Assembly: GCA_040390605.1 (NCBI GenBank) | Contig: JAZJXZ010000017.1 | Span: 34,948 to 98,947, forward strand | DNA length: 64,000 bases | Direction of reading: 5' to 3' | Origin: Pseudomonadota bacterium | GTDB taxonomy: Bacteria > Pseudomonadota > Alphaproteobacteria > Sphingomonadales > Sphingomonadaceae | Shown: positions 10,606-51,766 of the stretch, one piece after another | Layout of the letters: the number at the start of each line of letters is the position of its first letter | How positions within the stretch are numbered: position 1 is the first letter of the stretch | Translations under genes and position numbers: made by a program | The notes under the pieces: generated by a model | Databases searched by the model: none | Told to the model about the DNA's origin: nothing | The model's input: only the letters and a program-made list of their open reading frames with translations

Positions 10606-10742
10606 CAGCGCGAAACCTCGATGAAAAGCAAAACGATCGACGCAGTGAGCATAATTTCCTCTCCGCGGCGGCGCGGCGGCGATTTTCATGCTACATAGCC
10701 GCATCGCCGCGTTGGCGACCATAGCCGAAAGTACCTTCGCCC

Positions 10743-11951
10743 ATGTCCGACGATTTCTACCGCATTCGCCGCCTGCCCCCCTATGTCATCGCCGAAGTCA
10801 ACGCGATGCGGGCCCAGGCGCGCGCGGCGGGCGAGGACATCATCGATCTCGGCATGGGCAACCCCGATTTGCCCCCGCCGCCGCACGTCATCGATAAATT
10901 GTGCGAAGTGGCACGCAAGCCCGACGCGCATGGCTATTCCGCCTCCAAAGGCATCCCCGGCTTACGCAAGGCGCAGGCCAATTATTATGGCCGCCGCTTC
11001 GGCGTCGATCTCGACCCCGAGACCGAGGTGGTGGTGACGCTCGGCTCGAAAGAAGGCCTCGCCAATCTCGCCCAGGCGATCACCGCGCCGGGCGACGTCG
11101 TGCTCGCGCCCAATCCAAGCTATCCGATCCATACCTTCGGCTTCATCATCGCCGGCGCGACGATCCGCAGCGTGCCGACCACGCCCGACGAGAAATATTT
11201 CGAGGCGCTGGAACGCGCCATGGCCTTCACCGTCCCCCGCCCGAGCGTGCTGGTGATGGGTTATCCATCGAACCCGACTGCCGAGGTGGTCGACCTCGCC
11301 TTCTACGAACGTGTCGTCGCCTTCGCCAAGGAGCACAAGCTCTGGGTGCTGTCGGACCTCGCTTATTCCGAGCTTTATTATGACGGCCAGCCAACCCCCT
11401 CGATCCTCCAGGTGCCCGGCGCCAAGGACGTCGCGGTCGAGTTCACCTCGCTCAGCAAGACCTATTCCATGGCCGGCTGGCGGATCGGCTTCGCGGTCGG
11501 CAACAAGCGGCTGATCGACGCGCTGACGCGGGTGAAGTCGTACCTCGATTACGGTGCCTTCACGCCGATCCAGGCCGCCGCGGTGGCCGCGATCAACGGA
11601 CCGCAGGACATCGTCGAAGCCAACCGCACCCTTTATCGCGCGCGCCGCGACGTGTTGGTCGAGAGCTTCGGCCGCGCCGGCTGGGATATCCCGAGCCCAC
11701 GCGCCTCGATGTTCGCCTGGGCACCGCTGCCGCCGGCGTTGCAGCATCTCGGCAGCCTGGAATTCTCCAAGCAGCTGCTCAGCCATGCCAAGGTCGCGGT
11801 GGCGCCGGGCGTCGGATACGGCGAGAATGGCGAGGGCTATGTCCGCATCGCCATGGTCGAGAACGAGCAGCGCCTGCGGCAGGCGGCGCGCAACGTGAAG
11901 CGCTATCTGACCAGTATGGGCGTCAATACGCCTGCACAACAGAGCGGCTGA
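10743..11951 (+). CDS. class I/II PLP-dependent aminotransferase (alanine/aspartate transaminase-like)
   Basis: 402 aa with IIDLGMGNPDLPPP near the N-terminus and the SLSKTYSMAGWRIG PLP-lysine block. Confidence 0.85.
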   Translation: MSDDFYRIRRLPPYVIAEVNAMRAQARAAGEDIIDLGMGNPDLPPPPHVIDKLCEVARKPDAHGYSASKGIPGLRKAQANYYGRRFGVDLDPETEVVVTLGSKEGLANLAQAITAPGDVVLAPNPSYPIHTFGFIIAGATIRSVPTTPDEKYFEALERAMAFTVPRPSVLVMGYPSNPTAEVVDLAFYERVVAFAKEHKLWVLSDLAYSELYYDGQPTPSILQVPGAKDVAVEFTSLSKTYSMAGWRIGFAVGNKRLIDALTRVKSYLDYGAFTPIQAAAVAAINGPQDIVEANRTLYRARRDVLVESFGRAGWDIPSPRASMFAWAPLPPALQHLGSLEFSKQLLSHAKVAVAPGVGYGENGEGYVRIAMVENEQRLRQAARNVKRYLTSMGVNTPAQQSG

Positions 11952-34761: not shown

Positions 34762-35677
34762 TGGCCGCCCGCGTCAAATTGAGGAACACATCCTCGAGAT
34801 CAGGCTCCTTGGTCGACACCTCGACGATGCCGAAGCCGCCGGCCTGGACCGCGGCGAGTACCTGGCCGGCATTGGCCTGGTCCTTGCGGTAGGTGATTTC
34901 CAGCACCCGCGCGCCCTTCAGTTCGATCTTCTGGAAGCAGGCGGCCTCGGGCGCCACGGCGACGTCGCGATCGACCGTCACCTCGACCAGCTTCTCCTGC
35001 GCCATGCCGACCAGCTCGCGGGTCGGCTTGTTGGCGATGACCTTGCCGTGGTTGATGATCGCGATGCGGTCGCACAGCTGCTCGGCCTCTTCGAGATAGT
35101 GCGTCGTCAGCACCACCGTCACGCCCTGATCGTTGAGGCTGCGGACATAGGCCCAGAGCTGCTGGCGCAGCTCGATGTCGACGCCTGCGGTGGGCTCGTC
35201 GAGCACCAGCACCGGCGGCCGGTGGACCATCGCCTTGGCGACCATCAGCCGGCGCTTCATCCCGCCCGAGAGCGTGCGGGCATAGGCATTGGCCTTGTCC
35301 TCGAGATGCACCGCGCGGAGCAGCTCCATCGTGCGGCGCTTGGCCTTGGGCACGCCGTACAACCCGGCCTGGATCTCCAGCGTCTCGAACGGCGTGAAGA
35401 AGGGATCGAACAATATCTCCTGGTTGACGATGCCGATCGACGCCTTGGCGTTGCGCGGATGATCGTCGATGTCGAAGCCCCAGATCGCCGCCGAACCGCC
35501 GGTCTTGTTGACCAGCCCGGCGAGGATGTTGATCAGCGTCGACTTGCCCGCGCCGTTCGGCCCGAGCAGCCCGAAGACGGAGCCGCGCGGCACCTCGAAA
35601 CTGACCTCATCGAGCGCGCGCTTGCCGCCCGCATAGGTCTTGCACAACTGGTCGATGGCGATCGCGGCTTCGGTCAT
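34754..35677 (-). CDS. ABC transporter ATP-binding protein (ABC-2 exporter type); no permease gene adjacent
   Basis: Start MTEAAIAIDQLCKTY. Walker A GPNGAGKST, signature LSGGMKRR, Walker B VLVLDEPT. Overlaps the nadB start by 8 nt. Confidence 0.85.
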   Translation of the reverse strand: MTEAAIAIDQLCKTYAGGKRALDEVSFEVPRGSVFGLLGPNGAGKSTLINILAGLVNKTGGSAAIWGFDIDDHPRNAKASIGIVNQEILFDPFFTPFETLEIQAGLYGVPKAKRRTMELLRAVHLEDKANAYARTLSGGMKRRLMVAKAMVHRPPVLVLDEPTAGVDIELRQQLWAYVRSLNDQGVTVVLTTHYLEEAEQLCDRIAIINHGKVIANKPTRELVGMAQEKLVEVTVDRDVAVAPEAACFQKIELKGARVLEITYRKDQANAGQVLAAVQAGGFGIVEVSTKEPDLEDVFLNLTRAANA

Positions 35678-35760
35678 GTCCGGCCTGTAAGCAAGCGGGC
35701 GGGCAAGCTCAATGCTTGGCGCGGACGATGTTGGCGACGGGTGCTCTGAATGGGAGCAGT

Positions 35761-35797
35761 GAAATTCCCTGCCGCAGCGGTGCTGGCAGGGAATTTC
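35761..35797. other. perfect 13-bp-arm hairpin in a 410-nt gap
   Basis: GAAATTCCCTGCC (35761-73), an 11-nt loop, then GGCAGGGAATTTC (35785-97). A partial third copy, GGCAGGGAAAT, lies at 35818-28. Confidence 0.5.
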
Positions 35798-36088
35798 GAA
35801 CATATTCCGCGGGCGGTGGCAGGGAAATGGCAGGCGCGCGATGTTGGACGTTTCGGGAACGTTGCCCGGGCGGGTGTCGCGGGCGCGGGGCATGGACCTG
35901 TCGGACGACCACAGGCAATTGACCGATAGCGTGTCGGGCGGGATGGCGCTGAGCATGCCCGCAATCTTGCCGGGTTCGGCGGCAGTTTGAATCAGTGTGT
36001 GATCGACTGGAATGTCCACCGTCGGCAATGGGCCGCTGGCGGCCCAACCGCTTAGAAAAGCGGTGCAGCTGGGCTGACACGTCGCGCC

Positions 36089-36559
36089 TCACTCGATGCC
36101 GAGCAGGCGGTCGAGCGAGAAGCGCCCGGCGCCGAGCGCGATGATCGGCAGCATCAGCCCGGCCCAGCTGAGATGCGTCGGCCACGCATCGGGATAGACG
36201 AAGACCTCGATCACCGTCGTCATGCCGAGGAGGGCCAGCGCGGAGAAACGGCTGAACAGCCCGAGCACGAGCAGGATCGGGAAGACATGCTCGGCGGTGG
36301 TCGCGGCATAGGCGGCCGGTACCGCCGGGATCAGCGGCAAGGCGTAATCGCTGCGGAACAACTCGAAGGTGCCGTCGCTGAGCGTGAACCATCCCTCGAC
36401 CTTGGTGCGCCCCGACTGGAAGAACACCGCCGCGACGCCGAGCCGCTGCACCAGCAGCAGCGCCGACATGGGGAGCGCACGCCGCGCCAGCGCGGCGAAG
36501 CGGTCGAGCGGGTTGCGGCGCGCGGCGGAGGCGGCTGTCGTTGTGTCGAGCATGATCAT
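36089..36559 (-). CDS. DoxX family membrane protein (last gene of bufferin-1-type operon)
   Basis: MIMLDTTT...[21 protein letters not shown]...[20 protein letters not shown] overlap with the upstream DUF2063 gene. Confidence 0.8.
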
Positions 36560-37290
36560 TTTCCCTTGATGCGGAGCGAAGAGAGCGCGCCGCTCGCAAG
36601 GATCTTGCGAAAGGCGGTGGAGATGTCGGTCTGCGGATAGAGTGTCGCGGCAACCGCAGCGGCCTGGCCGATCGTCTCGCCGAGCCTGAGGCCGAACAGG
36701 ATACGATGTTCGGCGGCGTTGATCGTGCGCGCCGTCACCGCGCCGTGGCGGCGGGTGACCAACACACCCTCGGCGCGCCATTCGGGCGCGATCTCGCCCG
36801 CCGTCTCACCGAGATGGGCGAGCCAGATCGACGGCGCCGGCACGGTGAACCAGCTGAAGCGGGTGGCGGGCTGGAGCAGGACGGCGCTCGCCGACCATTG
36901 CTCGGCCGAAACCGATGCGAGCGCCCGTGGATCGAGCATCTCGCCCTCGACCGCGAGATGTGCCTCGACGCGCAACCGGTCGATCTGCGCCACGCCCGAA
37001 ATATAGGGCAGCACCTGGGCGATCGGCTGGGTCTCCAGCCAGTCGGCGAATCCGGCGCCATAATCGGCCAGCACCGGGCTTTGCGGCGGCAGATCGACGA
37101 CGAAATCGGCCGCCAGCGCAAGGAAGGCGGTGGCGCCGAGGATCGTCGATACGGTGGGATGGTTGTCGGCCAGCGCGTCGATCGCGCCCTTCAGGGCGGT
37201 GTTGCGATAGACCGTCAGCGCGGGGTGCCAGGGACGCGTGCCGTCGAGCGCATCGACGAAGCGGCGTTGATAGGTCGCAAGATCAGGCAT
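36556..37290 (-). CDS. bufC: DUF2063 protein (BufC-type partner of the MNIO enzyme)
   Basis: 244 aa. YQRRFVDAL...[32 protein letters not shown] is a DUF2063-like N-terminus. Overlaps the DUF692 stop by 8 nt. Confidence 0.8.
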
Positions 37291-38119
37291 GAGCGTGAAC
37301 CTTTCCTTCGAGCAGGGCGGCGGCGCGATCGCGCTCGGCCATCAGGGTGGCGAAATCGGGCACGTTGCCGTCGCGCTCGAGCAGCACCGGGCGATGCCCC
37401 GCATGATCGAGCAGGTCGGCGAGTAGTGCCCAGACGGATTCGGCAACGGGGGTGTCGTGGCTGTCGATCAGCAGGTCGTCGCCGAGCAGCGGGTCGGCCG
37501 AATGGCCGGCGATGTGGATCTCACCAATCGCCGGGTGCGGCAAAGCAGCCAGATAGGCCTGGGCATCCTCGCCGAGATTGGCGGCGGCGACCGCGACATT
37601 GTTGACGTCGATCAGCAGCCCGCAGCCGGTGCGTGACACGATCTCGCGCAGGAAATCAGGCTCGTCCCACGCCGCGCCTTCGTTGGGCATGTAATGTGCC
37701 GGATTCTCGATCAGGATCGTCCGGCCCAGGGTCTGCTGGACGATATCGATATTGCGCGTGACGCAGGCCAGGGCCTCGGCGGTGCGCGGCACCGGCAGCA
37801 AATCGGGTAGGCAGCGCGTGCCGATCCGCGACCAGGCGAGATGCTCGGAGACGAGGAACGGATCGAAGCGCGCGACCAGCCGCGCCAGCTTGGCGAGGTG
37901 CAGCGCATCAGGCCGCTCGGCCCCGCCCAGCGACAGGCCGACGCCGTGCAGCGACAACGGCCGAACCTCGCGCAGCTCCTCCAGCATCATCAGCCGGGGG
38001 CCGCCCGCGACCATGTAATTCTCGGCATGGACCTCGAACCACATCCCGGCCGCCGGCGTGGCGATGGCCGCGTCGAAATGCTGCGGCTTGAAAGCCACGC
38101 CGGCGGTCGGGCGGTTCAT
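37283..38119 (-). CDS. bufB: DUF692 / MNIO family (MbnB/TglH/BufB-like) RiPP-modifying iron enzyme
   Basis: 278 aa. GVAFKPQHF...WFEVHAENYM...LSLHGVGLSLGG...FLVSEHLAW...IENP...DVNNV...EIHIAGH is the UPF0276/DUF692 pattern. Confidence 0.85.
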   Translation of the reverse strand: MNRPTAGVAFKPQHFDAAIATPAAGMWFEVHAENYMVAGGPRLMMLEELREVRPLSLHGVGLSLGGAERPDALHLAKLARLVARFDPFLVSEHLAWSRIGTRCLPDLLPVPRTAEALACVTRNIDIVQQTLGRTILIENPAHYMPNEGAAWDEPDFLREIVSRTGCGLLIDVNNVAVAAANLGEDAQAYLAALPHPAIGEIHIAGHSADPLLGDDLLIDSHDTPVAESVWALLADLLDHAGHRPVLLERDGNVPDFATLMAERDRAAALLEGKVHAHA

Positions 38120-38123
38120 CGCC

Positions 38124-38402
38124 TCAACCCTTCGGGGTCAGCGAGCCAAAGCCCTTGGGCGTCTTGATGCGCGTGCAGCTGCCCTTGGCAACGTACTTCC
38201 AGGCGTCACCCTGATAGGCGACGCGACTGGTGCCGGCGCAGCTGGTGCCGGCACCGGCCTTGCAATCGTTCTTGCCGGCCAGGCTGATGCCATAGCATTT
38301 GTCCTTGCCGGGCTGCGGCGCGACCGGGCCGGCATGGGCCGCGGCGGCGCCGAGCGCCGACAGGACGGCGGCGGTGAGGGCGAGATTGACGGTCTTCATC
38401 AT
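38124..38402 (-). CDS. bufA: DUF2282 4-Cys secreted precursor peptide (BufA1-type bufferin)
   Basis: [24 protein letters not shown] | [68 protein letters not shown]. Sec signal plus four Cys. Its stop lies 4 nt from the DUF692 start. Confidence 0.85.
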
Positions 38403-38514
38403 GGTTCCTTTCGAAGGGGTGCTCCCTCTCGGGTGCGGCACGACATTCGCGTAAAACGCCGTCGGCGTCCGCTACCCGGACCGCATCGTTTCGATGCGCG
38501 CGGGTGATGGCGGC

Positions 38515-39660
38515 TCAGCCGGCAGCGGAGGTGTGGATCATCTCGCCGCCCATCGCCTCGTGCAGCACGAAACCCTCTAGCGGATCGACCTCGGCGCGCC
38601 ACGGCCCGGCTTCCAGCGTGCGCATCGTGTCGGCATAGCCGGCATCCCAGCGCGCGCGGATGCCCGCCGGGCTGAAGTCGATGTCCTTGCTGTGATCCTC
38701 GCAGGCCAGTGCCGGGGCGAGCAGGCGGATGACGTGCATGCGCGTCGGGCAGCCATAGGCGGCGAGCCCCGCCACCTCGGCCGACTGTCGCTTGTCCGCC
38801 GGTACCAGCGCCGACAATTCGGTGATCACATGGCGCAGCTTGTGAAGCTGGCGCTGGCGCTTGATATGGGTCGAGGCGCGGCTGGAATATTGCACGTCCT
38901 TCTGGCGGTTCATCACCTCCCAGATCGTTTCGGGCTCGGCCCCGTGCGGGTTCCAGATATGCACCGCATAGACCATCGAATCGCGCCGCGGATTGTCGTC
39001 GAACACCACCTCGACCGGCGTGTTCGAGAGGATGCCGCCGTCCCAATAGAGCTCGCCGTCGATGCGCACCGCGGGAAAGGCGGGCGGCAGCGCGCCCGAG
39101 GCCATTACGTGGCGCAGGTCGAGCGGCGTGTCGCGCGAATCGAAATAATGCATCTCGCTGGTCGTCACGCGCGAGGCACCGACGGTCAGCCGCACCGGGC
39201 CGGCATTGACCTGGTCGAAATCGATCAGGTCGGCGAGCGTCTTGCGTAGCGGCTCGACCGAATAATAGCCCGCGCCCTCCGCGCCCAATGTGCTGTGCGG
39301 GCTGACAAAGGCGCCGGCGTTGGGGGTGAAGAAGGCCGGTAGCCCGCCGACCACGGTCGACCAGTTGCGGAACATCGCCGAAAGCTGCGTCGGCAGCGCC
39401 CATTCGAAGGCGTGGCCATGTTCCATGCGGCGCCAGAATTCGCGCAGCCGCTCCATGCGCTCGTCGGCGCGACTACCGGCGATGATCGCGGCGTTGATCG
39501 CGCCGATCGAGGTGCCGATCACCCAGTCGGGCTCGACCCCGGCCTCGTGCAACGCCTGATAGACGCCGACCTGATAGGCACCGAGCGCGCCGCCGCCCTG
39601 GAGCACCAGCACCTGCTGGCCGTGGCGGCGTAGTTCGTCGTGAAGGGTAAGGCGAGACAT
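38515..39660 (-). CDS. patatin-like phospholipase
   Basis: Start MSRLTLHDEL, with AGGAGA 6 nt upstream. Oxyanion GGGALGAYQVG and nucleophile elbow GTSIGA are present. Confidence 0.85.
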   Translation of the reverse strand: MSRLTLHDELRRHGQQVLVLQGGGALGAYQVGVYQALHEAGVEPDWVIGTSIGAINAAIIAGSRADERMERLREFWRRMEHGHAFEWALPTQLSAMFRNWSTVVGGLPAFFTPNAGAFVSPHSTLGAEGAGYYSVEPLRKTLADLIDFDQVNAGPVRLTVGASRVTTSEMHYFDSRDTPLDLRHVMASGALPPAFPAVRIDGELYWDGGILSNTPVEVVFDDNPRRDSMVYAVHIWNPHGAEPETIWEVMNRQKDVQYSSRASTHIKRQRQLHKLRHVITELSALVPADKRQSAEVAGLAAYGCPTRMHVIRLLAPALACEDHSKDIDFSPAGIRARWDAGYADTMRTLEAGPWRAEVDPLEGFVLHEAMGGEMIHTSAAG

Positions 39661-41070: not shown

Positions 41071-41892
41071 TCATTGTGCCACCCACCCGCCATCGACCGG
41101 CAAGGCCGCGCCGGTGATCGACCGGCCGCCGTCCGAGCACAGGAACACCGCCAGCGCGCCGAGCTCCTCGACCGTGGCGAAGCGCTTGCTCGGCTGGGCG
41201 GCGAGCAGAACCGTCTCGATCACCGCCTCGCGGCTGATGCCGCGCGCCTTTGCCGTGTCCTCGATCTGGTTCTCGACCAGCGGGGTCCAGACATAACCCG
41301 GGCAGATCGCGTTGCAGGTCACGCCGAAGCGCGCGCCCTCCAGCGCGACGGTCTTGGTCAGCCCGACCACGCCATGTTTTGCGGCGACATAGGCGGCCTT
41401 GAACGGCGAGGCGACCAGGCCATGCGCCGAGGCCACATTGACGATGCGTCCCCAGCCGGCGGCCTTCATCGGCGCGAAGGCGGTGCGGATGGTGTGGAAC
41501 GCCGCCGACAGGTTGAGCGCGATGATCGCGTCCCACTTCGCCGCCGGGAAATCCTCGATCGGCGAAACGTGCTGGATGCCGGCATTGTTGACCAGGATAT
41601 CGACCTTGCCGAAGCCGGCGATGGCGTTCTCGACCAGCGCGACGGCACCGTCGGGGTCGATCAGGTTGGCGCCGTCATAGGTGACGCGCACACCGCACGA
41701 ATCGGCGAGTGCGCCACGCGTCGTCTCGATCGCCTCCATCTCGCCCAGGCCGTTGAGCACGATGTCGGCACCGGCTTCGGCCAGCGCGCGGGCGATGCCC
41801 AGGCCGATGCCGCTGGTCGATCCGGTGACGATGGCGACGCGGCCGGCGAGCGGTCGCGCGGCGTGCATCTGTTGCAGGGGTTGAACGGTCAT
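41071..41892 (-). CDS. bdhA: 3-hydroxybutyrate dehydrogenase (SDR)
   Basis: Start MTVQPL, with AGGAGA upstream. GRVAIVTGSTSGIGLGIA, NNAG and YVAAKHG catalytic motifs. Confidence 0.85.
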   Translation of the reverse strand: MTVQPLQQMHAARPLAGRVAIVTGSTSGIGLGIARALAEAGADIVLNGLGEMEAIETTRGALADSCGVRVTYDGANLIDPDGAVALVENAIAGFGKVDILVNNAGIQHVSPIEDFPAAKWDAIIALNLSAAFHTIRTAFAPMKAAGWGRIVNVASAHGLVASPFKAAYVAAKHGVVGLTKTVALEGARFGVTCNAICPGYVWTPLVENQIEDTAKARGISREAVIETVLLAAQPSKRFATVEELGALAVFLCSDGGRSITGAALPVDGGWVAQ

Positions 41893-42135
41893 GGGTGTCT
41901 CCTGGGAAGCTGTCGTTCCAAGGATGACCGTCCGGGGGCGCTGACTGAAATGCCGTTCCTGCATGGAAACCATGCGGACAATCGAATGTCCCCGCCGGCG
42001 GAACGCGCCTAAATTTCAGGTCGTCACGAGAAGCGGCCAGCTCCGGCCAAATCTCCTCCGCCACTGCCCTGGCACCCCGCGCCGGCCGCGCCGCCTCCCG
42101 TGACACGGTTTCATTTCACCAGAAGGACCATCGCC

Positions 42136-42702: not shown

Positions 42703-43119
42703 GTGACAGATCCGTATCGCGTCGGCCTCGATGTGCTGGCGCAAACCGGTGCCGGCCAGGACACCCGGCGCAACCGCGTTGCCGAAATCGCGCCCGACTT
42801 CGCCCGCCTTGCCATCGGCTTTGCCTATGGCGAGATCTTCGCGCGGCCTGGACTCGACCTCAAGGAGCGCGAGCTCGCCGCCATCGCCGCGCATGCCGCG
42901 CTCGGCAGGGCCTCCGCGCAACTGCGCCAGCATGTCGAGGCTGCACTGCATCTCGGCTGGAGCCGCGCGGAGATCGTCGAGGTGCTGATCCAGACGGCGG
43001 TGCATGCCGGCCTTCCGGCCGCACTCGACGCCCTGTCAAATTGTCACGACCTGTTGGTCGAACGCAGTGGCTATTGCGCATCCTGCGAAAGCGATGCGCC
43101 GGATCGCGGCCAAACGTGA
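42703..43119 (+). CDS. carboxymuconolactone decarboxylase (AhpD-like) family protein
   Basis: GTG start. GLDLKERELAAIAAHAALGRASAQLRQHVEAALHLGWSRAEIVEVLIQTAVHAGLPAA is a CMD-domain pattern. Confidence 0.75.
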   Translation: MTDPYRVGLDVLAQTGAGQDTRRNRVAEIAPDFARLAIGFAYGEIFARPGLDLKERELAAIAAHAALGRASAQLRQHVEAALHLGWSRAEIVEVLIQTAVHAGLPAALDALSNCHDLLVERSGYCASCESDAPDRGQT

Positions 43120-43979
43120 CGCCGCGCCTCGCGCACGAACGCGCCGATCGCCGGTGAATGCGGCCGCCCGCGCACCGTGGCGAGGTAGATGGTCCGCTTA
43201 TAGCCCGGCTCGATCAGCGGTCGGATGACCAATTCCGGATCGGTGACGCAATATTCCGGGAAGAAGCCGAAGCCGAGCCCGGCCTTGATCATCTTCTGTA
43301 CCCATTCGTCGCGCGGTGAACTGAACACCTTCTTGGTGGTCACGCCCCGGCGCGCGAAATCCTCCGTCACGGTCTGGAACACCTCGCAATTGGTGCGCCC
43401 GACATAAGGCTCGCCATCGAGGTCCGCGACGCGGATCGCGTTCTTGCGCGCCCATGGATGGCCCGGCGGCAAGACGATGACGAAGCGCTCGGTGAACACC
43501 GGGACCTGGTGGAGCGAGTCGGGCAATTCCTCGGGCACGCCGATGATGCTGATCTGCAGGTCGCCCTTTTCCAGCGCAGCGATCATCGCCTGCGCCTCGC
43601 CATCGACCACGGTGACCTCGACATCGGGATGCGCGGCGCGAAAGCGCACGATCAGATCGGCGACGAGTTGCGGCCCGATCGTGCACATGGCGCCGATCGT
43701 CAGCGTGATGTTCTCGATCTTCTTCGCCGCTCTGGCGGCCTGACGCGCGGCCTGGGTCGATGCCTCGACGGTCTCGAGATAGGGCAGCATCATCCGGCCG
43801 AGCTCGGAGAGATGCGTGTTGTTGCGTTCGCGGTGGAACAGCGGACCGCCCAGCTCATGCTCGAGCTGCTGGATGGCGCGGGTCAGGGCGGGCTGGCTGA
43901 CATTGCAGCGTTCCGCCGCGCGCGTGAAATTGAGCGTCTCGGCCAGCGCGACGAAATAGCGGACCTGCTGCATTTCCAT
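43071..43979 (-). CDS. LysR family transcriptional regulator
   Basis: MEMQQVRYFVALAETLNFTRAAERCNVSQPALTRAIQQLE is a LysR HTH, followed by the substrate-binding domain. Confidence 0.9.
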   Translation of the reverse strand: MEMQQVRYFVALAETLNFTRAAERCNVSQPALTRAIQQLEHELGGPLFHRERNNTHLSELGRMMLPYLETVEASTQAARQAARAAKKIENITLTIGAMCTIGPQLVADLIVRFRAAHPDVEVTVVDGEAQAMIAALEKGDLQISIIGVPEELPDSLHQVPVFTERFVIVLPPGHPWARKNAIRVADLDGEPYVGRTNCEVFQTVTEDFARRGVTTKKVFSSPRDEWVQKMIKAGLGFGFFPEYCVTDPELVIRPLIEPGYKRTIYLATVRGRPHSPAIGAFVREARRHVWPRSGASLSQDAQ

Positions 43980-44060: not shown

Positions 44061-45005
44061 TCAGGCCGCGACCCGAACCGCGCGCCGTTCGACCCGCCGC
44101 GCGAGCGTGATCGCGCCGGCGATCGACAGCGCCATCACCGACACCGCGACCCAGGCATAAGACAGCAGCAACGGCAGTCCGATCAGGATCAGCCCGTCAT
44201 TGCTGCCCGGCACCAGCATCGCGCCGACCCCCATCAAAGCGCCGCCGGCAGCGCAGCGCAGCACATCGCGCGCGCGCGGCGGCGTCGAGTTGAGCAGGCC
44301 GGCGATCCATCCCCCGGCGATCGCGCCGCCCAGCAGCGCCAGCACCATCGCCAGGCGCAGCGTCAGACGCGCCTCCATGCCATGCGCCAGCGCGGCGAGC
44401 GCGTCGGTATAGGCCCATGGCCCGACCGCCAGCAGCGTCGTCACGAAGGTCGCGGCGATCAGCAAGGTGGCGCGGTGCGGATGCCACAGATGCGCGAAGA
44501 AGCCGGGTGCGTGCGCCGCCTCGGCAAGCCGCCACATGATCGGCACGGCAATGGCGATAGCGACGATGCCGGCATGCGCGAATGGCGCGACATGCTGCGA
44601 TCCGGGCAACGCGGCAGCGCCGTGCAGCGGCACGAGACAGCCGAAATAGAAACCGACCGGCGTGGCCAGCCACGCCCATTGCCCCGAGCCGATCCTGGCG
44701 ATCGCACCGAACACGCAGGCGCGGTTGATCCAGGCGCCGAGGCCGAGCAGCACGCCGCCCGCCACCGTCGCGCCGCTCGGCGGATAACGCGCCGGGGACA
44801 TGGCGAACAAGCCGGCGAGCTGGGCCAGCGCGAGCAACCCGCCGACCCACAATGCCGCCTCGCCCAGCGCCAGCGCGCGCGTCGCGCGGCGCATCGTGAC
44901 GATCTCATCGACCGCCGCGACCATGCAGGTCGCGCCGCGCTGGATGGCGAGACCCATCAGCGCGGCGGACATCAGGGCGATGGCGGCGGCAGCCCAGCCG
45001 TACAT
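44061..45005 (-). CDS. YeeE/YedE-like polytopic membrane protein (putative sulfur-compound transporter)
   Basis: Start MYGWAAAAIALMSA. Repeated ...RGATCMVAAV... and ...NRACVFGAIA... Cys-containing helices as in YeeE/YedE. One-nucleotide overlap with the upstream gene. Confidence 0.55.
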   Translation of the reverse strand: MYGWAAAAIALMSAALMGLAIQRGATCMVAAVDEIVTMRRATRALALGEAALWVGGLLALAQLAGLFAMSPARYPPSGATVAGGVLLGLGAWINRACVFGAIARIGSGQWAWLATPVGFYFGCLVPLHGAAALPGSQHVAPFAHAGIVAIAIAVPIMWRLAEAAHAPGFFAHLWHPHRATLLIAATFVTTLLAVGPWAYTDALAALAHGMEARLTLRLAMVLALLGGAIAGGWIAGLLNSTPPRARDVLRCAAGGALMGVGAMLVPGSNDGLILIGLPLLLSYAWVAVSVMALSIAGAITLARRVERRAVRVAA

Positions 45006-45502
45006 CAGCGCGTCGCGGCGCCGGCGATCGAGGCGGCGACCTCGCTGGCCATCCTGAACTGCGCAGCGCGGTCGGTGATGCGATAGCGCCGTGCGATGAA
45101 GCCGAAATCGGTCCACGCCACCCACACCTGGCCGCTGGTGTCTTCCAGCACCAGCATGCGCACCGGCCAGTCGAGCCCGGCATAGGGATTGGACTGGAGA
45201 AACTGCACGCCGAGCGGCGGGTTGCCGAACAGCACCAGGGTCGAGCGGCGGATCTTGAGTCCCGCGCCCTCGCCAAGGCCGCTCTGGTCGATCGCGTCGA
45301 AGAAGCGGATGCCCTTGGCCGCGACATCGGCCTTGAGTTGCGCGACGGTCTGGTCGAAGCCGCTGGCGCTGCGCAGTTGCACGACGCCGTCGGCGGCGGC
45401 GACCGGCGTGGCGGTGGCGGCCCTGGTTCCGGCGGCGGTGGCGGGGGCGCCGGTGAGCGCGGCGACAGCGATGAGCGGCGCGAGGATAAGCGGATATTTC
45501 AT
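45005..45502 (-). CDS. secreted DUF302-domain protein
   Basis: Signal peptide MKYPLILAPLIAVAALTGAPATA. ...VLFGNPPLGVQFLQSNPYAGLDWPVRMLVLED is DUF302-like. GGAGA RBS. Confidence 0.65.
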   Translation of the reverse strand: MKYPLILAPLIAVAALTGAPATAAGTRAATATPVAAADGVVQLRSASGFDQTVAQLKADVAAKGIRFFDAIDQSGLGEGAGLKIRRSTLVLFGNPPLGVQFLQSNPYAGLDWPVRMLVLEDTSGQVWVAWTDFGFIARRYRITDRAAQFRMASEVAASIAGAATR

Positions 45503-45668: not shown

Positions 45669-46427
45669 TCAATTGTCCGCGCAGCTGAAACCCGCGATGA
45701 GACCCTCGGACACCCACTGCGCCAGATATTGCCCCGCTTGCCCGACGCCGCGCTCTTCGCCCAGCCTGTCGACGAGTCGCGAACACAGTCCTTCGAACGA
45801 GACGCCGGACCGGACGAGGAGCAGGCACATCAGTTCCTGCGCCTCCGCGGTGCGAAAGTGCGATATGTGCCCTCGCCGCCAGACGATAACGGGCAAACTT
45901 TCCTCGAGATACTCGACTGGCGGCGGGACGTCGCCCGCATCGATGGCCGACCAGAGCGCGGCGGCGTTGGTCCATAGCGGTCGATGATCGAACGTTGGCG
46001 GGAGGTGCAAAACCGCCTTTGCCCAGTCGATGTCGCCAAGCTGGTCCATGCCGAGCTCGGTCGCATCGGGGCCGACGAATGCCTCGCCCAGCGCGCATTC
46101 GATCCACGCGAGTTCACCGACCTCCGGATCATCCTCGAAGGCGCTCGACAACGTCGCCGGAAAATCGCGCGCATAGGCGTCGAGCGTCCAGCTGCTCGGC
46201 GGAACGCGGTCGATGTGCGTGACGAGCGACTGCAGAAAGAGATCGCCCCCGAGCCACGCGCGGGTATGGGGAAAGGCTTCGTCGAGGCACGCAATAAGCT
46301 GCGCGCGATAGTTGTTCATATAGACATCGAGTCCTGCGGCGGCGCTCTCGCCGATCCGCCGGGCCGCCGACCGGTCCTCGTGGACCAGCCAGGCGCGGAC
46401 GTCGCGTTGCAGCGCCAGCAGGCTCAT
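45669..46427 (-). CDS. bufC: DUF2063 protein (BufC-type), second copy
   Basis: MSLLALQRDVRAWL...GLDVYMNNYRAQLIACLDEAFPHTRAWLGGDLF. ATGA overlap with the DUF692 stop. Confidence 0.8.
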   Translation of the reverse strand: MSLLALQRDVRAWLVHEDRSAARRIGESAAAGLDVYMNNYRAQLIACLDEAFPHTRAWLGGDLFLQSLVTHIDRVPPSSWTLDAYARDFPATLSSAFEDDPEVGELAWIECALGEAFVGPDATELGMDQLGDIDWAKAVLHLPPTFDHRPLWTNAAALWSAIDAGDVPPPVEYLEESLPVIVWRRGHISHFRTAEAQELMCLLLVRSGVSFEGLCSRLVDRLGEERGVGQAGQYLAQWVSEGLIAGFSCADN

Positions 46428-47254
46428 GCCGCCCTCTTCTCACCCGCACGCCCGATCCGCCGTGCGACGTCGAGTTCGGCGAGGAGGTCGGCGAGCGGCG
46501 GAATGTCGTCGTCGCGCTCGATCATCGTGGCGACCGGTCCGAGGCGTGGCAGCACATGGGCATAGAGATCCCACACCGATGCCGGAACCTCGCGATCGTG
46601 CGTATCGATCAGCAGGTGCTTGCCCGCGCTATGGCCGGCGAGGTGAATCTGGCGGACGCGGTCGTGCGGCAGGCCGTCCAGATAGGCGATCGCGTCGAAC
46701 CCGTGATTGGTCGCGCTGACGAAGACGTTGTTGACGTCGAGCAGCAGCCCGCAGCCTGTGCGTGCGCAGACCGCGTCGAGAAACTGCCACTCGGACATGT
46801 CGGCGGGCGCGAAGTCGATATAGCTGGAGGGGTTTTCGATCAGCATCTCGCGACGCAGCGCCTCCTGCGCCCGCGCGATATTGGCGCACACCACATCTAG
46901 CGCCTCGCGCGTGTAGGGCAGCGGCAGAAGATCGTGCGCGTTGAAGCCCTCGCTCCGGCTCCAGCTGAGATGATCAGAGACGAACAGCGGTTCGATCTCG
47001 TCGACCAGCGCGCGCAACCGCGCCAGATACGCCCCGTCCAATCCGTCGGCCGAGCCAAGCGACATCGAGACGCCGTGCAGCGCCACCGGATACCGCTGGC
47101 GCACATCGCGCAGAATCTGACGCGGTTTCCCGCCGTCGACCATGAAATTCTCGGAGATCACCTCGACGAAATCGACCGCCACACGGTGTTCGAGGAATTC
47201 CCGGTAGTGCGGCTTGCGAAGACCGAGCCCGAAGCCGGCAAAAGTAGCGCTCAT
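46424..47254 (-). CDS. bufB: DUF692 / MNIO family RiPP-modifying enzyme, second copy
   Basis: GFGLGLRKPHY...VDFVEVISENFM...VALHGVSMSLGS...LFVSDHLSW...IENPSSY...DVNNVFV...QIHLAGH. Confidence 0.85.
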   Translation of the reverse strand: MSATFAGFGLGLRKPHYREFLEHRVAVDFVEVISENFMVDGGKPRQILRDVRQRYPVALHGVSMSLGSADGLDGAYLARLRALVDEIEPLFVSDHLSWSRSEGFNAHDLLPLPYTREALDVVCANIARAQEALRREMLIENPSSYIDFAPADMSEWQFLDAVCARTGCGLLLDVNNVFVSATNHGFDAIAYLDGLPHDRVRQIHLAGHSAGKHLLIDTHDREVPASVWDLYAHVLPRLGPVATMIERDDDIPPLADLLAELDVARRIGRAGEKRAA

Positions 47255-47323: not shown

Positions 47324-47584
47324 TCAGTTCGGTGCGGTGGTGCTGCCGCCGGCGGCGGTGCAGGCCTTGAGCGCCATTTCCTTGAAGCCCTGACCCTTGC
47401 AGTCGTTCTGGCCCTTGCAATCATGGTTGCCCGACTTGCAGTCCGACTGGCCCTTGCAGCCGTTGACGCCGTAGCAATGGACCTTCGCCCCACCCTTGGC
47501 GACGGCCATGGTCGGGGCGACCGCGGTGATGGCGACAACGGCGGCGGCAGCGGCGAAGCTCACGCCGGTTCGGATCATGGTCAT
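47324..47584 (-). CDS. bufA: 6-Cys secreted precursor peptide (BufA2-type bufferin)
   Basis: MTMIRTGVSFAAAAAVVAITAVAPTMAVA | KGGAKVHCYGVNGCKGQSDCKSGNHDCKGQNDCKGQGFKEMALKACTAAGGSTTAPN. AGGAG lies 6 nt upstream. Six Cys, including a CKGQ-type repeat. Confidence 0.8.
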   Translation of the reverse strand: MTMIRTGVSFAAAAAVVAITAVAPTMAVAKGGAKVHCYGVNGCKGQSDCKSGNHDCKGQNDCKGQGFKEMALKACTAAGGSTTAPN

Positions 47585-47625: not shown

Positions 47626-47651
47626 TTCGGCGTAGGCGGCGCCCTGGTTAC
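47626..47651 (-). promoter_or_regulatory. ECF-type promoter TGTAACC-N16-CGAAC for the 6-Cys bufferin operon
   Basis: The minus strand reads tTGTAACC agggcgccgcctacgc CGAAC. It lies in the 80-nt gap between the nrsF stop and the bufA2 start. Confidence 0.7.
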
Positions 47652-47664
47652 AACGACCGCATCG

Positions 47665-48309
47665 TCACCAGCGCAGCAGGCGGGGGCCCAGCAGCGCGCC
47701 CAGCCCGGCGGCGAGCAAGATGCCCAACGAATACCAGGTGAGCACGAACAGCGCGGATACCTCCGGGCAATGCAGGCAATAGACCATGGCCGCGAAAGCA
47801 CCCGCGGCGAGCCCGGCAGCCGCGCCCGCAGCACGCAACCGCGTCGGCGCAAGGCGCCGGAACGACCAGAGCAAACCCACAAAGATCGGCATCGCCAGCG
47901 TGACCACGCGCCACGGACAATACATCCAGCTTTCGCCCAGCCACATTGCCAGCCATTCGCCACGCGGCGTTCGGACCAGTTCAACCGCGCCCACGCCCGC
48001 CAGAAGCAATACCGGCACGGCGACCACCCAGGCCCAGCGCAACCGCCCGCTATCCGGCCGGGCGAGCTGGACGGTCATCGCAAGCGCCGCGATCGACAGC
48101 GAAATGGTGTAGGCCCATTTCATCCAGAACGAGAAGCCGTGCATCGCGCTGCCGATATCCGGGCGCACACCCATCGCCAGCACCACATATATCAGGGACA
48201 CGACGGCGCCGCACAGGACGCCCGCGGTCAAGCGGCGGCTCACGGTGAACCGTCGGACCGGCGAAACCTCCGTCGAAAGGCGCGCGATCAGGTCTTCGGT
48301 GTTCATCAA
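47665..48309 (-). CDS. nrsF: NrsF (DUF1109) family anti-sigma factor, six-TM
   Basis: MMNTEDLIARLSTEVSPVRR... is followed by six hydrophobic segments with conserved Cys (MYCPW, YCLHCPE). ATGA overlap with the sigma gene. Confidence 0.8.
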   Translation of the reverse strand: MMNTEDLIARLSTEVSPVRRFTVSRRLTAGVLCGAVVSLIYVVLAMGVRPDIGSAMHGFSFWMKWAYTISLSIAALAMTVQLARPDSGRLRWAWVVAVPVLLLAGVGAVELVRTPRGEWLAMWLGESWMYCPWRVVTLAMPIFVGLLWSFRRLAPTRLRAAGAAAGLAAGAFAAMVYCLHCPEVSALFVLTWYSLGILLAAGLGALLGPRLLRW

Positions 48310-48842
48310 CCGCTCCCCTGGATGCGCGCCATCAACGACTTGAGCCCGCGATGCACTGACACCTTGACGTCGGATTCGCCCACACCGTTCGCCGCCGCCG
48401 CCTCCGCGACACTCAGGCCCTCGATCCGCGTCGCGCGGATCGCGCGCGCCTGTTTGGCCGGCAGGGTGTCCAGCAATTCCTCCACGTCGAGACGCGCGCT
48501 GGATGCCTTTTCAAAGTCTTCGGCGACCAGCACGTCTTCGAGGCCGTCGATCGGCTGCAGTCGTCGCACGCGGCGGAAATGGTCGATCATCTTGTAGCGG
48601 GCGATGGCGAACAACCAGGCGGTAAAGAGACGATCGCGATCATAGGTCGCCCGCTTGGTGTGAACGGCGATAAGCGTCTCTTGCACAAGGTCCTCGATAT
48701 CGTCTTCGCCACCATTCGCCCGGCGACGGTAATAGGCGCGAAGCAAGGGGACGAGAAGGCGCAGCAATGCGGCATGGTCGGCGGCATTGCCGTCGAGCCC
48801 ATTGATCATCAAACACCGCAAATCGTTCTCGCTTGCCCGCAT
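48306..48842 (-). CDS. sigF: ECF (sigma-70 family group IV) sigma factor, SigF-like
   Basis: Start MRASENDL, with GGGAG 5 nt upstream. Region 2 block EDLVQETLIAVHTKRATYD...FTAWLFAIARYKMIDHFRR, region 4 block ARAIRATRIEGLSVAEAAAANGVGESDVKVSVHRGLK. Confidence 0.9.
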   Translation of the reverse strand: MRASENDLRCLMINGLDGNAADHAALLRLLVPLLRAYYRRRANGGEDDIEDLVQETLIAVHTKRATYDRDRLFTAWLFAIARYKMIDHFRRVRRLQPIDGLEDVLVAEDFEKASSARLDVEELLDTLPAKQARAIRATRIEGLSVAEAAAANGVGESDVKVSVHRGLKSLMARIQGSG

Positions 48843-48931: not shown

Positions 48932-48957
48932 GTAACCGGCGGCACGCAACGCGCGAA
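48932..48957 (+). promoter_or_regulatory. ECF-type promoter TGTAACC-N16-CGAAC for the orphan bufA1-doxX-HAD operon
   Basis: The plus strand reads gTGTAACC ggcggcacgcaacgcg CGAAC. It is back-to-back with the sigF promoter (the -35 elements are 43 bp apart). Confidence 0.7.
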
Positions 48958-49064: not shown

Positions 49065-49343
49065 ATGCGCAAGTCATATGCGAGCCTCGCGGCGGCGCTG
49101 GCGGTCACGACCGTCGGCGCGACCGTTGCCGCCAACGCCGCCGCCCAGACCCGGCCCGCAATGGAGAAATGCTACGGCATCGCCCGTGCGGGCAAGAACG
49201 ATTGCAAGGCCGGCGCCGGCACGAGCTGCGCCGGCACGTCGAAGGTCGACTATCAGGGCAACGCCTGGAAGCTCGTCAAGGCCGGCACCTGTGTCAAGGC
49301 CAGAACCCCGAAGGGCTTCGGCTCGCTAACGCCGAAATCGTGA
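49065..49343 (+). CDS. bufA: DUF2282 4-Cys secreted precursor peptide, second paralogue (BufA1-type)
   Basis: [27 protein letters not shown] | [65 protein letters not shown]. By hand alignment, 45 of 58 core positions are identical to the 38124-38402 peptide. Confidence 0.85.
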
Positions 49344-49376: not shown

Positions 49377-49399
49377 CAACCGTGCAACGGAGAACAGCC

Positions 49400-49858
49400 A
49401 TGACTTGGCCGATTGCCCCTGTCGGGCGAATCCTCGACCGCCTGTCCGCCGCGATGCCCGATGCAGCGCTGCTGCTCGCGGGCCGTCTCGGCATCGCCGC
49501 CGTCTTCTTTACCTCGGGGCGAACGAAGGTGGATGGCATCATCCACATCACCGACGGCACCTACGAACTCTTTCGCACGGAATATGTTCTGCCGCTCGTC
49601 CCGCCGGAAGTGGCCGCAGTGCTGGCGACCTGGTCGGAGCACGTCTTCTCCATCCTGCTCATCCTCGGGCTGCTGACGCGCCTTTCCGCGACGGCGCTGT
49701 TCGCCATGACGCTGACGATCGAGATCTTCGTCTATCCCGACGCCTGGCCGACGCATCTGAGCTGGGCGGCGATCCTGTTGCCGCTGATGTTCCGCGGCGG
49801 AGGCGGCTGGTCGCTCGATTGTCTGCTGCGCCGGCCCTCCGCGCCCGCCGCGCACTGA
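49400..49858 (+). CDS. DoxX family membrane protein, second paralogue
   Basis: The ATG at 49400 has GGAGA 6 nt upstream (GTG at 49382 is also possible). LLLAGRLGIAAVFFTSGRTKV...[16 protein letters not shown] parallels the 36089-36559 DoxX. Confidence 0.8.
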   Translation: MTWPIAPVGRILDRLSAAMPDAALLLAGRLGIAAVFFTSGRTKVDGIIHITDGTYELFRTEYVLPLVPPEVAAVLATWSEHVFSILLILGLLTRLSATALFAMTLTIEIFVYPDAWPTHLSWAAILLPLMFRGGGGWSLDCLLRRPSAPAAH

Positions 49859-49880: not shown

Positions 49881-50654
49881 ATGTCGCACCATTCGATCGA
49901 CCGTCGCACCGTGCTGGCCGGGCTGGCCGGGCTGGCCGGAGCGATGGCGACGCCGGCGCTCGGCCAGTCGGCCGCGCCGGCCATCAAGGCGATCGCCTTC
50001 GACGGACTCGCCATCTTCGACCCGCGCGGGGTTGCCGTCAGGGCGCGGGCGTTGCTGGGCCAGCGGGGCGACGCCCTCGCCTCGCAGTGGTCGGCAAAGC
50101 TCTTCGGCTATAGCTGGCTCGAAACGGCCGCCGGCCGATATGCCGATTTCCGGACGCTCGCCGACGCCGCGCTCCGCTATGTCGCCGAGACGATGAAGGT
50201 GCCGCTCGACGCGAGAACGCGGGAGCAGCTGGTCGGCGCATATGATGCGCTCGACCTGTGGCCGGATGTCAAACCGGCGCTGGCCAGGCTCCACACCGCC
50301 GGCGTGCGCCTCGCCTTCCTGTCCAACCTCGGCGTCGAAACGTTGAACGCGAACATGTCGGCCAACGGCATCGCCGGATATTTCGAAGCGCCGCTCAGCA
50401 CCGACGCCGTCGGCCGCTTCAAACCCGCTCCGGAAGCCTATGCCATGGCGCTGCGCGCATTCGGGCTTCCGCGCGCGCATATCGGCTTCGCGGCATTCGG
50501 CGGATGGGATGCCGCCGGGGCGACATGGTTCGGCTACCGCACCGCCTGGGTCAATCGCTTCGACCTTCCCGTAGAACCGCTCGATACGCGACCGGCGATC
50601 ACAAGCCGCGGCATGGAAGGCGTTCTCGCCCTCGCGGGCATCGCGCCGGCCTGA
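49881..50654 (+). CDS. HAD superfamily hydrolase (type II haloacid dehalogenase-like) with twin-arginine signal
   Basis: MSHHSIDRRTVLAGLAGLAGAMATPALG is a Tat-like signal. IKAIAFDGLAIFD is HAD motif I with the nucleophile Asp. ...LAFLSNLG... and ...GGWDAAGA... follow. Starts 22 nt after doxX'. Confidence 0.7.
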   Translation: MSHHSIDRRTVLAGLAGLAGAMATPALGQSAAPAIKAIAFDGLAIFDPRGVAVRARALLGQRGDALASQWSAKLFGYSWLETAAGRYADFRTLADAALRYVAETMKVPLDARTREQLVGAYDALDLWPDVKPALARLHTAGVRLAFLSNLGVETLNANMSANGIAGYFEAPLSTDAVGRFKPAPEAYAMALRAFGLPRAHIGFAAFGGWDAAGATWFGYRTAWVNRFDLPVEPLDTRPAITSRGMEGVLALAGIAPA

Positions 50655-50697: not shown

Positions 50698-51219
50698 TTA
50701 TCGGCCTCGTTTCAGCATAGCGATCGCCTGAGCGCCGCCCCAGTCGATGGCGCGCGGCACGCGGGCGACCTCCCGGCCGGATCGATCGAAGATCACCGAA
50801 TATGGCGTGCCGAGCGCGCCATAGCGCCTGACCTGCGCAATGGGCGAAAAGCCCAGGTGGAGATGGGGATATTGGCCGGCGAACGCTGTGCGAGCGTCAT
50901 TGCGGTCGGCGTCGACCGACGCGGCGATGACGACGATGTCGCGCCGGCGCGCGGCCAGGCGATCGAGACTGGGCAGTTCCTCCCGACAAGGACCGCACCA
51001 ACTCGCCCAGAAGTTCACGACGAGAACCTTTCCACGCGCGCTACGCTCCAGATATCGCGAACCGTCGTCCAGCTCGATCTCGGGGAGCTGCGCCGAACCT
51101 GTACGTGCCGCCGCTGCCGACAAGACCGGCGGGCCGCCTGCCGCGACGATTGGTTGCCCAATCGCCGCGGCAGCCGACAACGCAAACGCCGCAACAGTCA
51201 AAGGGCGGTGGGCGCTCAA
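50698..51219 (-). CDS. TlpA-like periplasmic thiol:disulfide oxidoreductase
   Basis: Signal or anchor sequence, then VLVVNFWASWCGPCREELPSL (thioredoxin CxxC). The TTG start forms a TTGA overlap with the YHS gene stop; start uncertain. Confidence 0.8.
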   Translation of the reverse strand: MSAHRPLTVAAFALSAAAAIGQPIVAAGGPPVLSAAAARTGSAQLPEIELDDGSRYLERSARGKVLVVNFWASWCGPCREELPSLDRLAARRRDIVVIAASVDADRNDARTAFAGQYPHLHLGFSPIAQVRRYGALGTPYSVIFDRSGREVARVPRAIDWGGAQAIAMLKRGR

Positions 51220-51707
51220 AAGGCCTTGTCCTTCACGCTCGGCCAGTTTGCGCGCGCCTTGCCGACAATCCCGGGCGTGTCCTTATTGAAGATCGCGAGC
51301 GCGCGGGGGCCGTTGTTCAGATACAGCTTGCCGTTCACCACCTTGCCGGTCCGCGGATCGACGTCGACCTTCTCGCCGAACGCCGCGCCGGTGGCACAGA
51401 AGCCGCCAAATTCCGGAATGTACTTGCGCGGGTTGGCAAGGAAGGTGCGACGATGCGCAGCGGTGGCAAACAGGTATCGCGCTCCACCATAGGTCGCGGA
51501 TAACGCCGGCATGCCCGGCGTCGGTTTGCCGCTGTCGAAATAGGCGATCGGGTCGAAGCCGCCGAGCGCCACACCGCGCTCGTCGAGATTGACCTGCGAC
51601 GTCGATCCCTTGACGCCGGCAATGGCCGGCGACGCGGCGATCGGAGCGACAGCTTGAGCCAGGATGATGAACGAGGCCGCAATCGCGCCTCTCAACGATT
51701 TGTGCAT
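51216..51707 (-). CDS. secreted YHS-domain protein
   Basis: Signal peptide MHKSLRGAIAASFIILAQAVAPIAA. GGFDPIAYFDSGKP...YGGARYLFATAAHRRTFLANPRKYIPEFGGFC is YHS-like. Confidence 0.7.
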   Translation of the reverse strand: MHKSLRGAIAASFIILAQAVAPIAASPAIAGVKGSTSQVNLDERGVALGGFDPIAYFDSGKPTPGMPALSATYGGARYLFATAAHRRTFLANPRKYIPEFGGFCATGAAFGEKVDVDPRTGKVVNGKLYLNNGPRALAIFNKDTPGIVGKARANWPSVKDKAF

Positions 51708-51740: not shown

Positions 51741-51766
51741 TTCGCTGCTCGCGAGCCGATGGTTAC
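51741..51766 (-). promoter_or_regulatory. ECF-type promoter TGTAACC-N16-CGAAC upstream of the YHS-TlpA operon
   Basis: The minus strand reads tTGTAACC atcggctcgcgagcag CGAAC. The -10 element ends about 33 nt upstream of the YHS ATG. Confidence 0.65.

Follow-up and report, generated by a model that had tools for sequence, protein, structure and literature searches.

A probable bufferin-1 operon of an uncultured sphingomonad with an apparently sigmaF-independent leader

The bufABCD operon

Within a 64,000-nucleotide stretch of sphingomonad DNA (contig JAZJXZ010000017.1 of assembly GCA_040390605.1; hereafter the window, to which all positions refer), we found an intact four-gene operon, bufA-bufB-bufC-bufD, on the minus strand at 36089-38402. 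The gene set is that of the bufferin-1 (buf1) clusters, formerly called "gig-like", and the locus is very probably a functional buf1 biosynthetic operon whose product would be a thiooxazole-containing, copper-binding periplasmic peptide and whose transcription is probably not driven by sigmaF. bufA (38124-38402) encodes the bufferin-1 precursor of the DUF2282/BufA1 family (92 residues from the first ATG), bufB (37283-38119) a maturase of 278 residues belonging to the multinuclear non-haem iron oxidases (MNIO; DUF692), bufC (36556-37290) a DUF2063 partner protein of PME type 1 (244 residues), and bufD (36089-36559, with an alternative start at 36553) a DoxX-family membrane protein of 156 residues. 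A gap of 4 nt separates bufA from bufB, bufB and bufC overlap by 8 nt, and bufC and bufD share a 4-nt ATGA overlap; these tight junctions indicate translational coupling, including that of bufD to bufC. The initial annotation of this segment had described just this packing, and it holds, with a proviso about two of the start codons. In public gene calls on identical contigs, both bufA and bufD begin one ATG further in, at 38399 (91 residues) and 36553 (154 residues). These later starts are better spaced from the ribosome-binding sites and leave the mature peptide unchanged, and the later bufD start turns the 4-nt overlap with bufC into a gap of 2 nt.

Hidden Markov model searches succeeded for all four families that had been proposed from the sequence (i.e., DUF2282, DUF692, DUF2063 and DoxX). 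The Pfam matches were DUF2282/BufA1 PF10048 on BufA (81.5 bits, E 4.3e-23, cut-off 22.4), MbnB_TglH_ChrH PF05114 on BufB (307 bits, E 9e-92), DUF2063 PF09836 on residues 7-85 of BufC (64.8 bits, E 9e-18) and DoxX PF07681 on BufD (59 bits, E 7e-16), and because all four scores far exceed the gathering cut-offs, a chance arrangement can be excluded. Precomputed Pfam results for identical contigs likewise give PF10048:BufA1. G+C content at third codon positions of 0.82-0.92 across the four frames supports their coding status, and purifying selection acts on each of them, with ratios of nonsynonymous to synonymous substitution rates (dN/dS) of 0.02-0.47 against three relatives. Furthermore, 45 genome loci from Alpha-, Beta- and Gammaproteobacteria share the bufABCD order, and the genes are those of the core bufferin set (PMC12452194), which upholds the original reading of the architecture as a bufferin operon. 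Scans for structured RNA returned no Rfam match at a permissive threshold in 35900-38700 and no intrinsic terminator in 35600-39200, and hairpins downstream of bufD were not better than those of shuffled sequences.

The operon is flanked by patatin and ABC ATPase genes, and housekeeping genes surround it (prfC, relA/spoT, folD, argB, nadB and phaC). The window comes from the chromosome of an uncultured sphingomonad; its best genome matches are metagenome-assembled genomes (MAGs) of Sphingomonas, and Sandarakinorhabdus.

Precursor, maturases and proposed maturation

BufA has the layout of an exported precursor. Residues 1-24 (38331-38402) form a signal peptide with K3, a single hydrophobic segment at residues 4-22 and a Sec-type signal-peptidase I cleavage site between AHA and GP, and are followed by a 68-residue core (38127-38330) and the stop codon. 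In the core, the motifs KCYG, NDCKAG, TSCAG and GSC supply Cys12, Cys23, Cys31 and Cys52, alongside D22-C23-K24, S30-C31-A32, K45 and V47. Together with the PF10048 match, this agrees with the four-cysteine, Sec-exported precursor claimed earlier. A database search returned 2809 BufA homologues, and the cysteine columns are invariant or nearly so among 50 homologues. The motifs that flank the cysteines are common to Alpha-, Beta- and Gammaproteobacteria, and bufA dN/dS ranges from 0.02 to 0.28, with 0.023 against the closest relative. No significant match to BufA was found among the sequences of the PDB. In a Sphingomonas MAG (L007, near position 7860), a TAG interrupts the bufA orthologue in frame, in place of the Lys codon after the first modified Cys (NDC*AG); either the MAG is misassembled at this point or it carries a pseudogene.

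The initial annotation had also stated that such genes are usually annotated as hypothetical, and this is out of date. Pfam now labels PF10048 "BufA1" and PF09836 "HvfC_N", and NCBI names the close BufA homologues from Sandarakinorhabdus and Sphingomonas "BufA1 family periplasmic bufferin-type metallophore".

The assignment of the DUF692 protein to the MNIO family is confirmed at a finer level, since BufB also passes the NCBIfam equivalog NF050167 MNIO_BufB, "MNIO family bufferin maturase" (338 bits, cut-off 310), and does not reach the thresholds of the HvfB, ApyH, MbnB and ChrH models. The nearest solved MNIO structure is 3BWW, from a Histophilus homologue. Alignments made with HMMER to 3BWW, TglH and MbnB place the equivalents of the iron ligands at H58, H93, E138, D171, N174, H202, D219, H221 and E248, so that all nine of the positions that bind iron in the MbnB crystal structure (H54, H90, E133, D163, N166, H192, D208, H210 and E239; PMC9060507) are conserved in BufB.

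BufC yielded a confident AlphaFold2 model (53 homologues; mean predicted local distance difference test, pLDDT, 89.5), in which the C-terminal residues 174-240 form a strand-helix module of the winged-helix, RRE-like kind. Foldseek matched the model to TglI (8hci_A, E 3e-6), the partner of the MNIO TglH, and to NGO1945 (3dee, E 3.4e-5), the solved DUF2063 protein; the RRE protein TbiB1 and MbnC matched weakly. Neither the BufC sequence nor a 19-sequence BufC profile found a significant match among PDB sequences, and the tie to TglI and 3DEE thus came from fold comparison only. The PF09836 match and this fold both agree with the earlier description of BufC as the DUF2063 partner of the enzyme.

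BufD contains several hydrophobic segments and scores 46.9 bits on the NCBIfam HvfX family (cut-off 80); its PF07681 match substantiates the claim of a DoxX protein as the fourth gene. The Caulobacter DoxX protein is dispensable for both modification and copper protection (PMC11626156), and BufD is probably not needed for maturation either.

The closest characterised system is buf1 of Caulobacter vibrioides (CCNA_03363-03366, producing bufferin 1; Leprevost et al. 2024, PMC11626156), which has the same gene set in the same order, BufA1-BufB-BufC-BufD. Its precursor likewise has a Sec signal and a 68-residue core with Cys 12/23/31/52, K45 and V47 fall at the same numbers, and the residues flanking the modified cysteines are identical; identity to Caulobacter relatives is ~58% for the precursor and ~60% for BufB. 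The two loci differ in their surroundings: in Caulobacter, sigF-nrsF lies beside bufA and a sigmaF promoter is used, whereas the window operon follows a patatin gene and has a leader with a palindrome. In the captophorins, or MNIO-PME1 systems (fontiphorin, oxazolin HvfABC and gonophorin; PMC13097082, PMC11252979), an MNIO and a DUF2063 protein also make 5-thiooxazoles on an exported copper-binding peptide, and DoxX genes are frequent. However, captophorin precursors are largely unstructured with EGKCG-type repeats, whereas BufA is a DUF2282 mini-protein with four cysteines and no EGKCG repeat, and the window proteins stay below the HvfABC cut-offs (HvfB 203 against 360, HvfC 32 against 142 and HvfX 47 against 80 bits). 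Bufferin 2 (BufA2, with 6 or 12 cysteines) shares the maturase family, the signal peptide and the disulfide between outer cysteines, but BufA has only four cysteines and scores 26.6 bits on NF050166 (cut-off 60). Methanobactin MbnABC shares the MNIO fold, the iron-ligand set and the conversion of Cys to a heterocycle that yields a copper ligand. There, a short precursor made of leader and core, with no Sec signal, is paired with MbnC, in contrast to the Sec-directed DUF2282 precursor and DUF2063 partner of the window, and the product is an oxazolone-thioamide secreted as a chalkophore for copper uptake. The MbnB model TIGR04159 gives BufB 63 bits, far from its cut-off of 325.

By analogy with the work on Caulobacter, Haemophilus and Fontimonas, the cell would synthesise BufA as a 91-92-residue precursor, and BufB (as an iron-dependent oxidase using O2) together with the peptide-binding BufC would convert Cys23 and Cys31 to 5-thiooxazoles in the cytoplasm, with a loss of four hydrogens each. 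The Sec system would then export the modified peptide, signal peptidase would cut after AHA, and a disulfide between Cys12 and Cys52 would lock a small folded domain. The 68-residue periplasmic product may chelate copper through its thiooxazole sulfurs (Cu+ more tightly than Cu2+) and thereby buffer an excess of the metal. The predicted monoisotopic [M+H]+ of the core is 6861.45 unmodified and 6851.37 for the mature form with two thiooxazoles and one disulfide. The initial annotation had stated that in the Caulobacter operons Cys residues of the exported peptide become thiooxazole-type heterocycles. That chemistry agrees with the 5-thiooxazoles of Caulobacter bufferin 1, but there only the two central residues, Cys23 and Cys31, are converted (-4.03 Da each), and the outer two, Cys12 and Cys52, form a disulfide (PMC11626156).

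The bufABCD leader and two palindromes

In most taxa, sigF-nrsF lies divergently beside bufA, with exact sigmaF promoters on both strands between them. In the window and in its sphingomonad relatives, bufABCD instead follows a string of short-chain dehydrogenase/reductase (SDR), NDH2 and patatin genes on the same strand. The sigmaF motif known from Caulobacter is GTAACC-N16-CGAA (PMC3511200); allowing up to two mismatches, we found none that is usably placed within the 112-nt intergenic stretch before bufA, and a scan of 35600-39200 for sigma-70 promoters found none. The only near-match, a GGAACC-N16-CGAA inside the patatin gene (38929-38954, 527 nt upstream), was rejected as a distant promoter, since none of the relatives has it and sites with one mismatch are expected by chance 1.65 times per window. 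bufABCD is therefore probably not transcribed from a sigmaF promoter, as judged from the sequence.

The leader carries two conserved elements. The first is a perfect 15-bp palindrome, GCATCGAAACGATGC (38483-38497, of the type GCATSG-N3-CSATGC, with no strand assigned), 81-95 nt upstream of the bufA ATG, which is a candidate operator and is kept upstream of bufA in seven relatives. Its centre is asymmetric in several relatives (GCATCG...CCATGC), and we therefore favour a protein site over an RNA hairpin. The second is a promoter-like block on the minus strand (38445-38476) in which GGTAGCGGAC(G) (38467-38476) and a CGA (38447-38449) located 17 nt after GGAC are both invariant and are separated by a T-rich spacer. 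This block resembles the -35/-10 pair of an extracytoplasmic function (ECF)-type promoter, differs from the sigmaF motif and may function as a promoter. The register of these elements is fixed across 25 distinct sphingomonad leader sequences, in which the GGTAGCGGAC and CGA bases are invariant. Furthermore, a metagenome scan for the palindrome together with GGTAGCGGAC retrieved 23 contigs, and a bufA1 gene lay ~100 nt downstream in all 20 that had a readable downstream gene (of the remaining three, some broke off too early and in others no gene was called). In one sub-clade with this leader (metagenome contigs L053, L056, L061, L062 and L066), bufA is apparently followed by a bufC-like gene, without a full-length bufB match between the two, and L056 shows a variant patatin-linked gene order, bufA-bufC-bufA-bufB-bufD.

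Nearer to bufA, a short stem-loop (38419-38441, minus strand) may lie in the presumed 5' leader, directly upstream of the ribosome-binding site GAAAGGA; we assign it with low confidence. Most of the 25 leaders can form a hairpin of 4-7 bp at a near-constant offset with differing arms (GCACC/GGTGC, CGCCC/GGGCG and CCCGT/ACGGG), and the MAFFT alignment of this region is out of structural register. Folding of the window leader by itself was not better than shuffles (z -1.37). A long-range hairpin between GGTAGCGG and GCACCC, given by RNAalifold on 7 sequences, was dropped because its 3' block is unconserved among the 25 sequences and forms the local hairpin instead.

A second palindrome of the same type, GCATGGAAACCATGC (41961-41975, no strand assigned), occurs ~70 nt before the SDR gene, which is the first of the SDR-NDH2-patatin string adjoining bufA on its upstream side, and is followed by a conserved CGGCATTTCA. 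The SDR gene (bdhA-like, resembling 3-hydroxybutyrate dehydrogenase; 41071-41892) probably starts at the ATG at 41892, which is preceded by AGGAGA. This palindrome is kept in seven other contigs and degenerate in two (L005 and L006). The window contains two exact matches to the strict pattern, where shuffled sequences lead one to expect 0.03. We infer from these comparisons that the palindrome may be an operator common to the two adjacent units and the site of a dimeric regulator. bufABCD thus appears, from its leader, to use a lineage-specific promoter together with a palindromic operator common to the SDR-NDH2-patatin genes. A syntenic LysR regulator gene (43071-43979) was considered as a candidate for the binder and could not be tied to the palindrome. 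No ECF sigma factor other than sigF was found in the window, and a literature search on the palindrome sequence returned no paper. A PhaC polyhydroxyalkanoate synthase gene lies at 8875-10785 in the same window as the 3-hydroxybutyrate-dehydrogenase-like SDR. The palindrome-controlled SDR unit may belong to polyhydroxybutyrate turnover, in which case its link to a bufferin operon would be physiologically odd.

Other bufferin genes and the standing of the locus

Some 9 kb from bufABCD lie a sigF-nrsF pair, a complete buf2 operon and a BufA1-DoxX pair. Within 13 kb, the window thus has three genes for bufferin precursors, two for DoxX proteins, two maturase pairs and a sigmaF/NrsF pair. On the minus strand, sigF (48306-48842, an ECF sigma factor) and nrsF (47665-48309) precede a six-cysteine BufA2 precursor (47324-47584; NF050166, 101 bits, cut-off 60), the second MNIO BufB2 (46424-47254), which passes the same bufferin-maturase equivalog as BufB with 385 bits, and the second DUF2063 gene bufC2 (45669-46427). 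Downstream of bufC2 are a DUF302 gene (45005-45502) and a gene for a YeeE/YedE-type sulfur-transport membrane protein (44061 to ~45005), both on the minus strand; this pair is kept in six related contigs. Divergent from sigF on the plus strand are an orphan second BufA1/DUF2282 precursor of 92 residues, BufA1b (49065-49343; 85.4 bits), directly followed by DoxX2 (49382-49858), with no MNIO or DUF2063 gene between the two. A HAD-like hydrolase gene (49881-50654) comes after DoxX2, followed by genes for a TlpA-like thioredoxin (50698-51018, minus strand) and a member of the YHS-domain (seleno)protein family (51216-51707, minus strand; NF041384, 115 bits). Exact sigmaF motifs stand at 47626-47651 (between nrsF and bufA2), at 48932-48957 (ahead of BufA1b) and at 51741-51766 (ahead of the YHS and TlpA-like genes), and a motif with one mismatch precedes sigF. 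Because YHS genes also follow bufD in three other loci (L008, L011 and L045), the YHS gene may belong to the bufferin/sigmaF regulon as a further member.

These genes bear on what BufB and BufC act upon. BufA and BufA1b are identical over an 18-residue segment around the two modified cysteines, and BufA1b has no maturase beside it, which makes BufB and BufC plausible maturases for BufA1b in trans, in addition to their own BufA. BufB is 54-63% identical to the BufB of loci with sigF-nrsF directly upstream of bufA, as compared with 44-50% for BufB2. Moreover, precursors without an MNIO gene nearby are common, and modification in trans has been proposed for them (PMC12452194). On the other hand, BufB2 and BufC2, which are closer to BufA1b and in the same regulon, could modify it, and BufA1b might stay unmodified. 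We regard service to two substrates as a serious possibility, a little less likely than not.

The leader raises a different question, namely whether the same chemistry serves another role. The operon could stand outside the sigmaF/NrsF metal-stress circuit and be co-regulated with the SDR-NDH2-patatin genes for a respiratory, redox, carbon-storage or constitutive use, or it could handle another metal. The missing sigmaF motif upstream of bufA, compared with the three exact motifs and the one-mismatch motif before other bufferin-related genes of the window, speaks for such a role, as do the two palindromes, each heading one of two adjacent transcription units, and the retention of both sites and of the SDR-NDH2-patatin-bufABCD order in many contigs. 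In Caulobacter, the sigmaF-dependent buf genes also respond to chromium and cadmium (PMC3511200). However, both the binding factor and the inducing signal of such a scheme are hypothetical, an operator common to both units is compatible with copper as the signal, and L011 carries the palindrome beside sigmaF promoters, so that the two controls can be combined. The characterised bufferins, furthermore, bind copper. We therefore consider a different role unlikely, though not by a wide measure.

A broader version of this idea is that the clade has been rewired: the sigmaF/NrsF promoter was lost, a GGTAGCGGAC-N17-CGA promoter and the 15-bp palindromic operator were gained, and a putative regulator now couples the maturase to respiratory or carbon-storage physiology, leaving the sigmaF-run BufA1b dependent on a maturase in trans. 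We hold this scenario to be speculative and rather unlikely as a whole; if it were true, control would be split between the enzyme (the maturase) and its substrate (BufA1b).

Two further alternatives fare much worse. The modified cysteines could be oxazolone-thioamide pairs as in methanobactin; this group is isomeric with 5-thiooxazole, entails the same mass change and was first assigned to the product of the related HvfB (PMC11252979), but later work reassigned oxazolin to 5-thiooxazole and favours 5-thiooxazole over the isomer for bufferins (PMC13097082), which, with the low score of BufB on the MbnB equivalog, makes the oxazolone form very improbable. bufABCD could also be silent or decaying, having become redundant beside the sigmaF-linked bufferin genes 9 kb away; it is a second copy of buf1-type genes in this genome region and has no recognisable sigma-70 or sigmaF promoter. 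This reading is hardly credible given four intact frames, dN/dS well below 1, a leader kept in 25 sequences and the absence of any other BufA1-type maturase pair in the window.

Every defining bufferin-1 feature open to computational testing was found at the locus, and only the typical accessory linkage to sigmaF/NrsF was absent. Several points count against the assignment as a functional, copper-directed buf1 operon. The signal peptide is a judgement from sequence and hydropathy, and the AlphaFold2 model of BufA (50 close homologues) is of low confidence (pLDDT 48.9), too poor to judge the fold and the geometry of the disulfide. The chemistry, the order of export and copper binding are predictions from homology, and the promoter and operator assignments are purely comparative. 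With no sigmaF promoter and a link to respiratory and carbon-storage genes, the physiological trigger may not be copper. Set against the combined evidence of gene order, family membership, conserved residues, partner fold and purifying selection, these points leave a functional bufferin-1 operon as the very probable reading.

The bufferin family was defined experimentally in 2024, surveyed in 2025 and unified with the copper-binding thiooxazole peptides in 2026 (PMC11626156, PMC12452194, PMC13097082), and the window locus is an uncharacterised member of this well-described and very large family, whose members number in the thousands and in many cases already have names at NCBI. As a bufferin-1 cluster it adds little, and its value, which is modest, lies in its context. 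What goes beyond the published picture is the possible regulatory rewiring and the multi-locus arrangement, for which the evidence is comparative. In these respects, the lineage would offer a convenient natural case of bufferin regulation detached from sigmaF and of maturases that may act in trans on orphan precursors.

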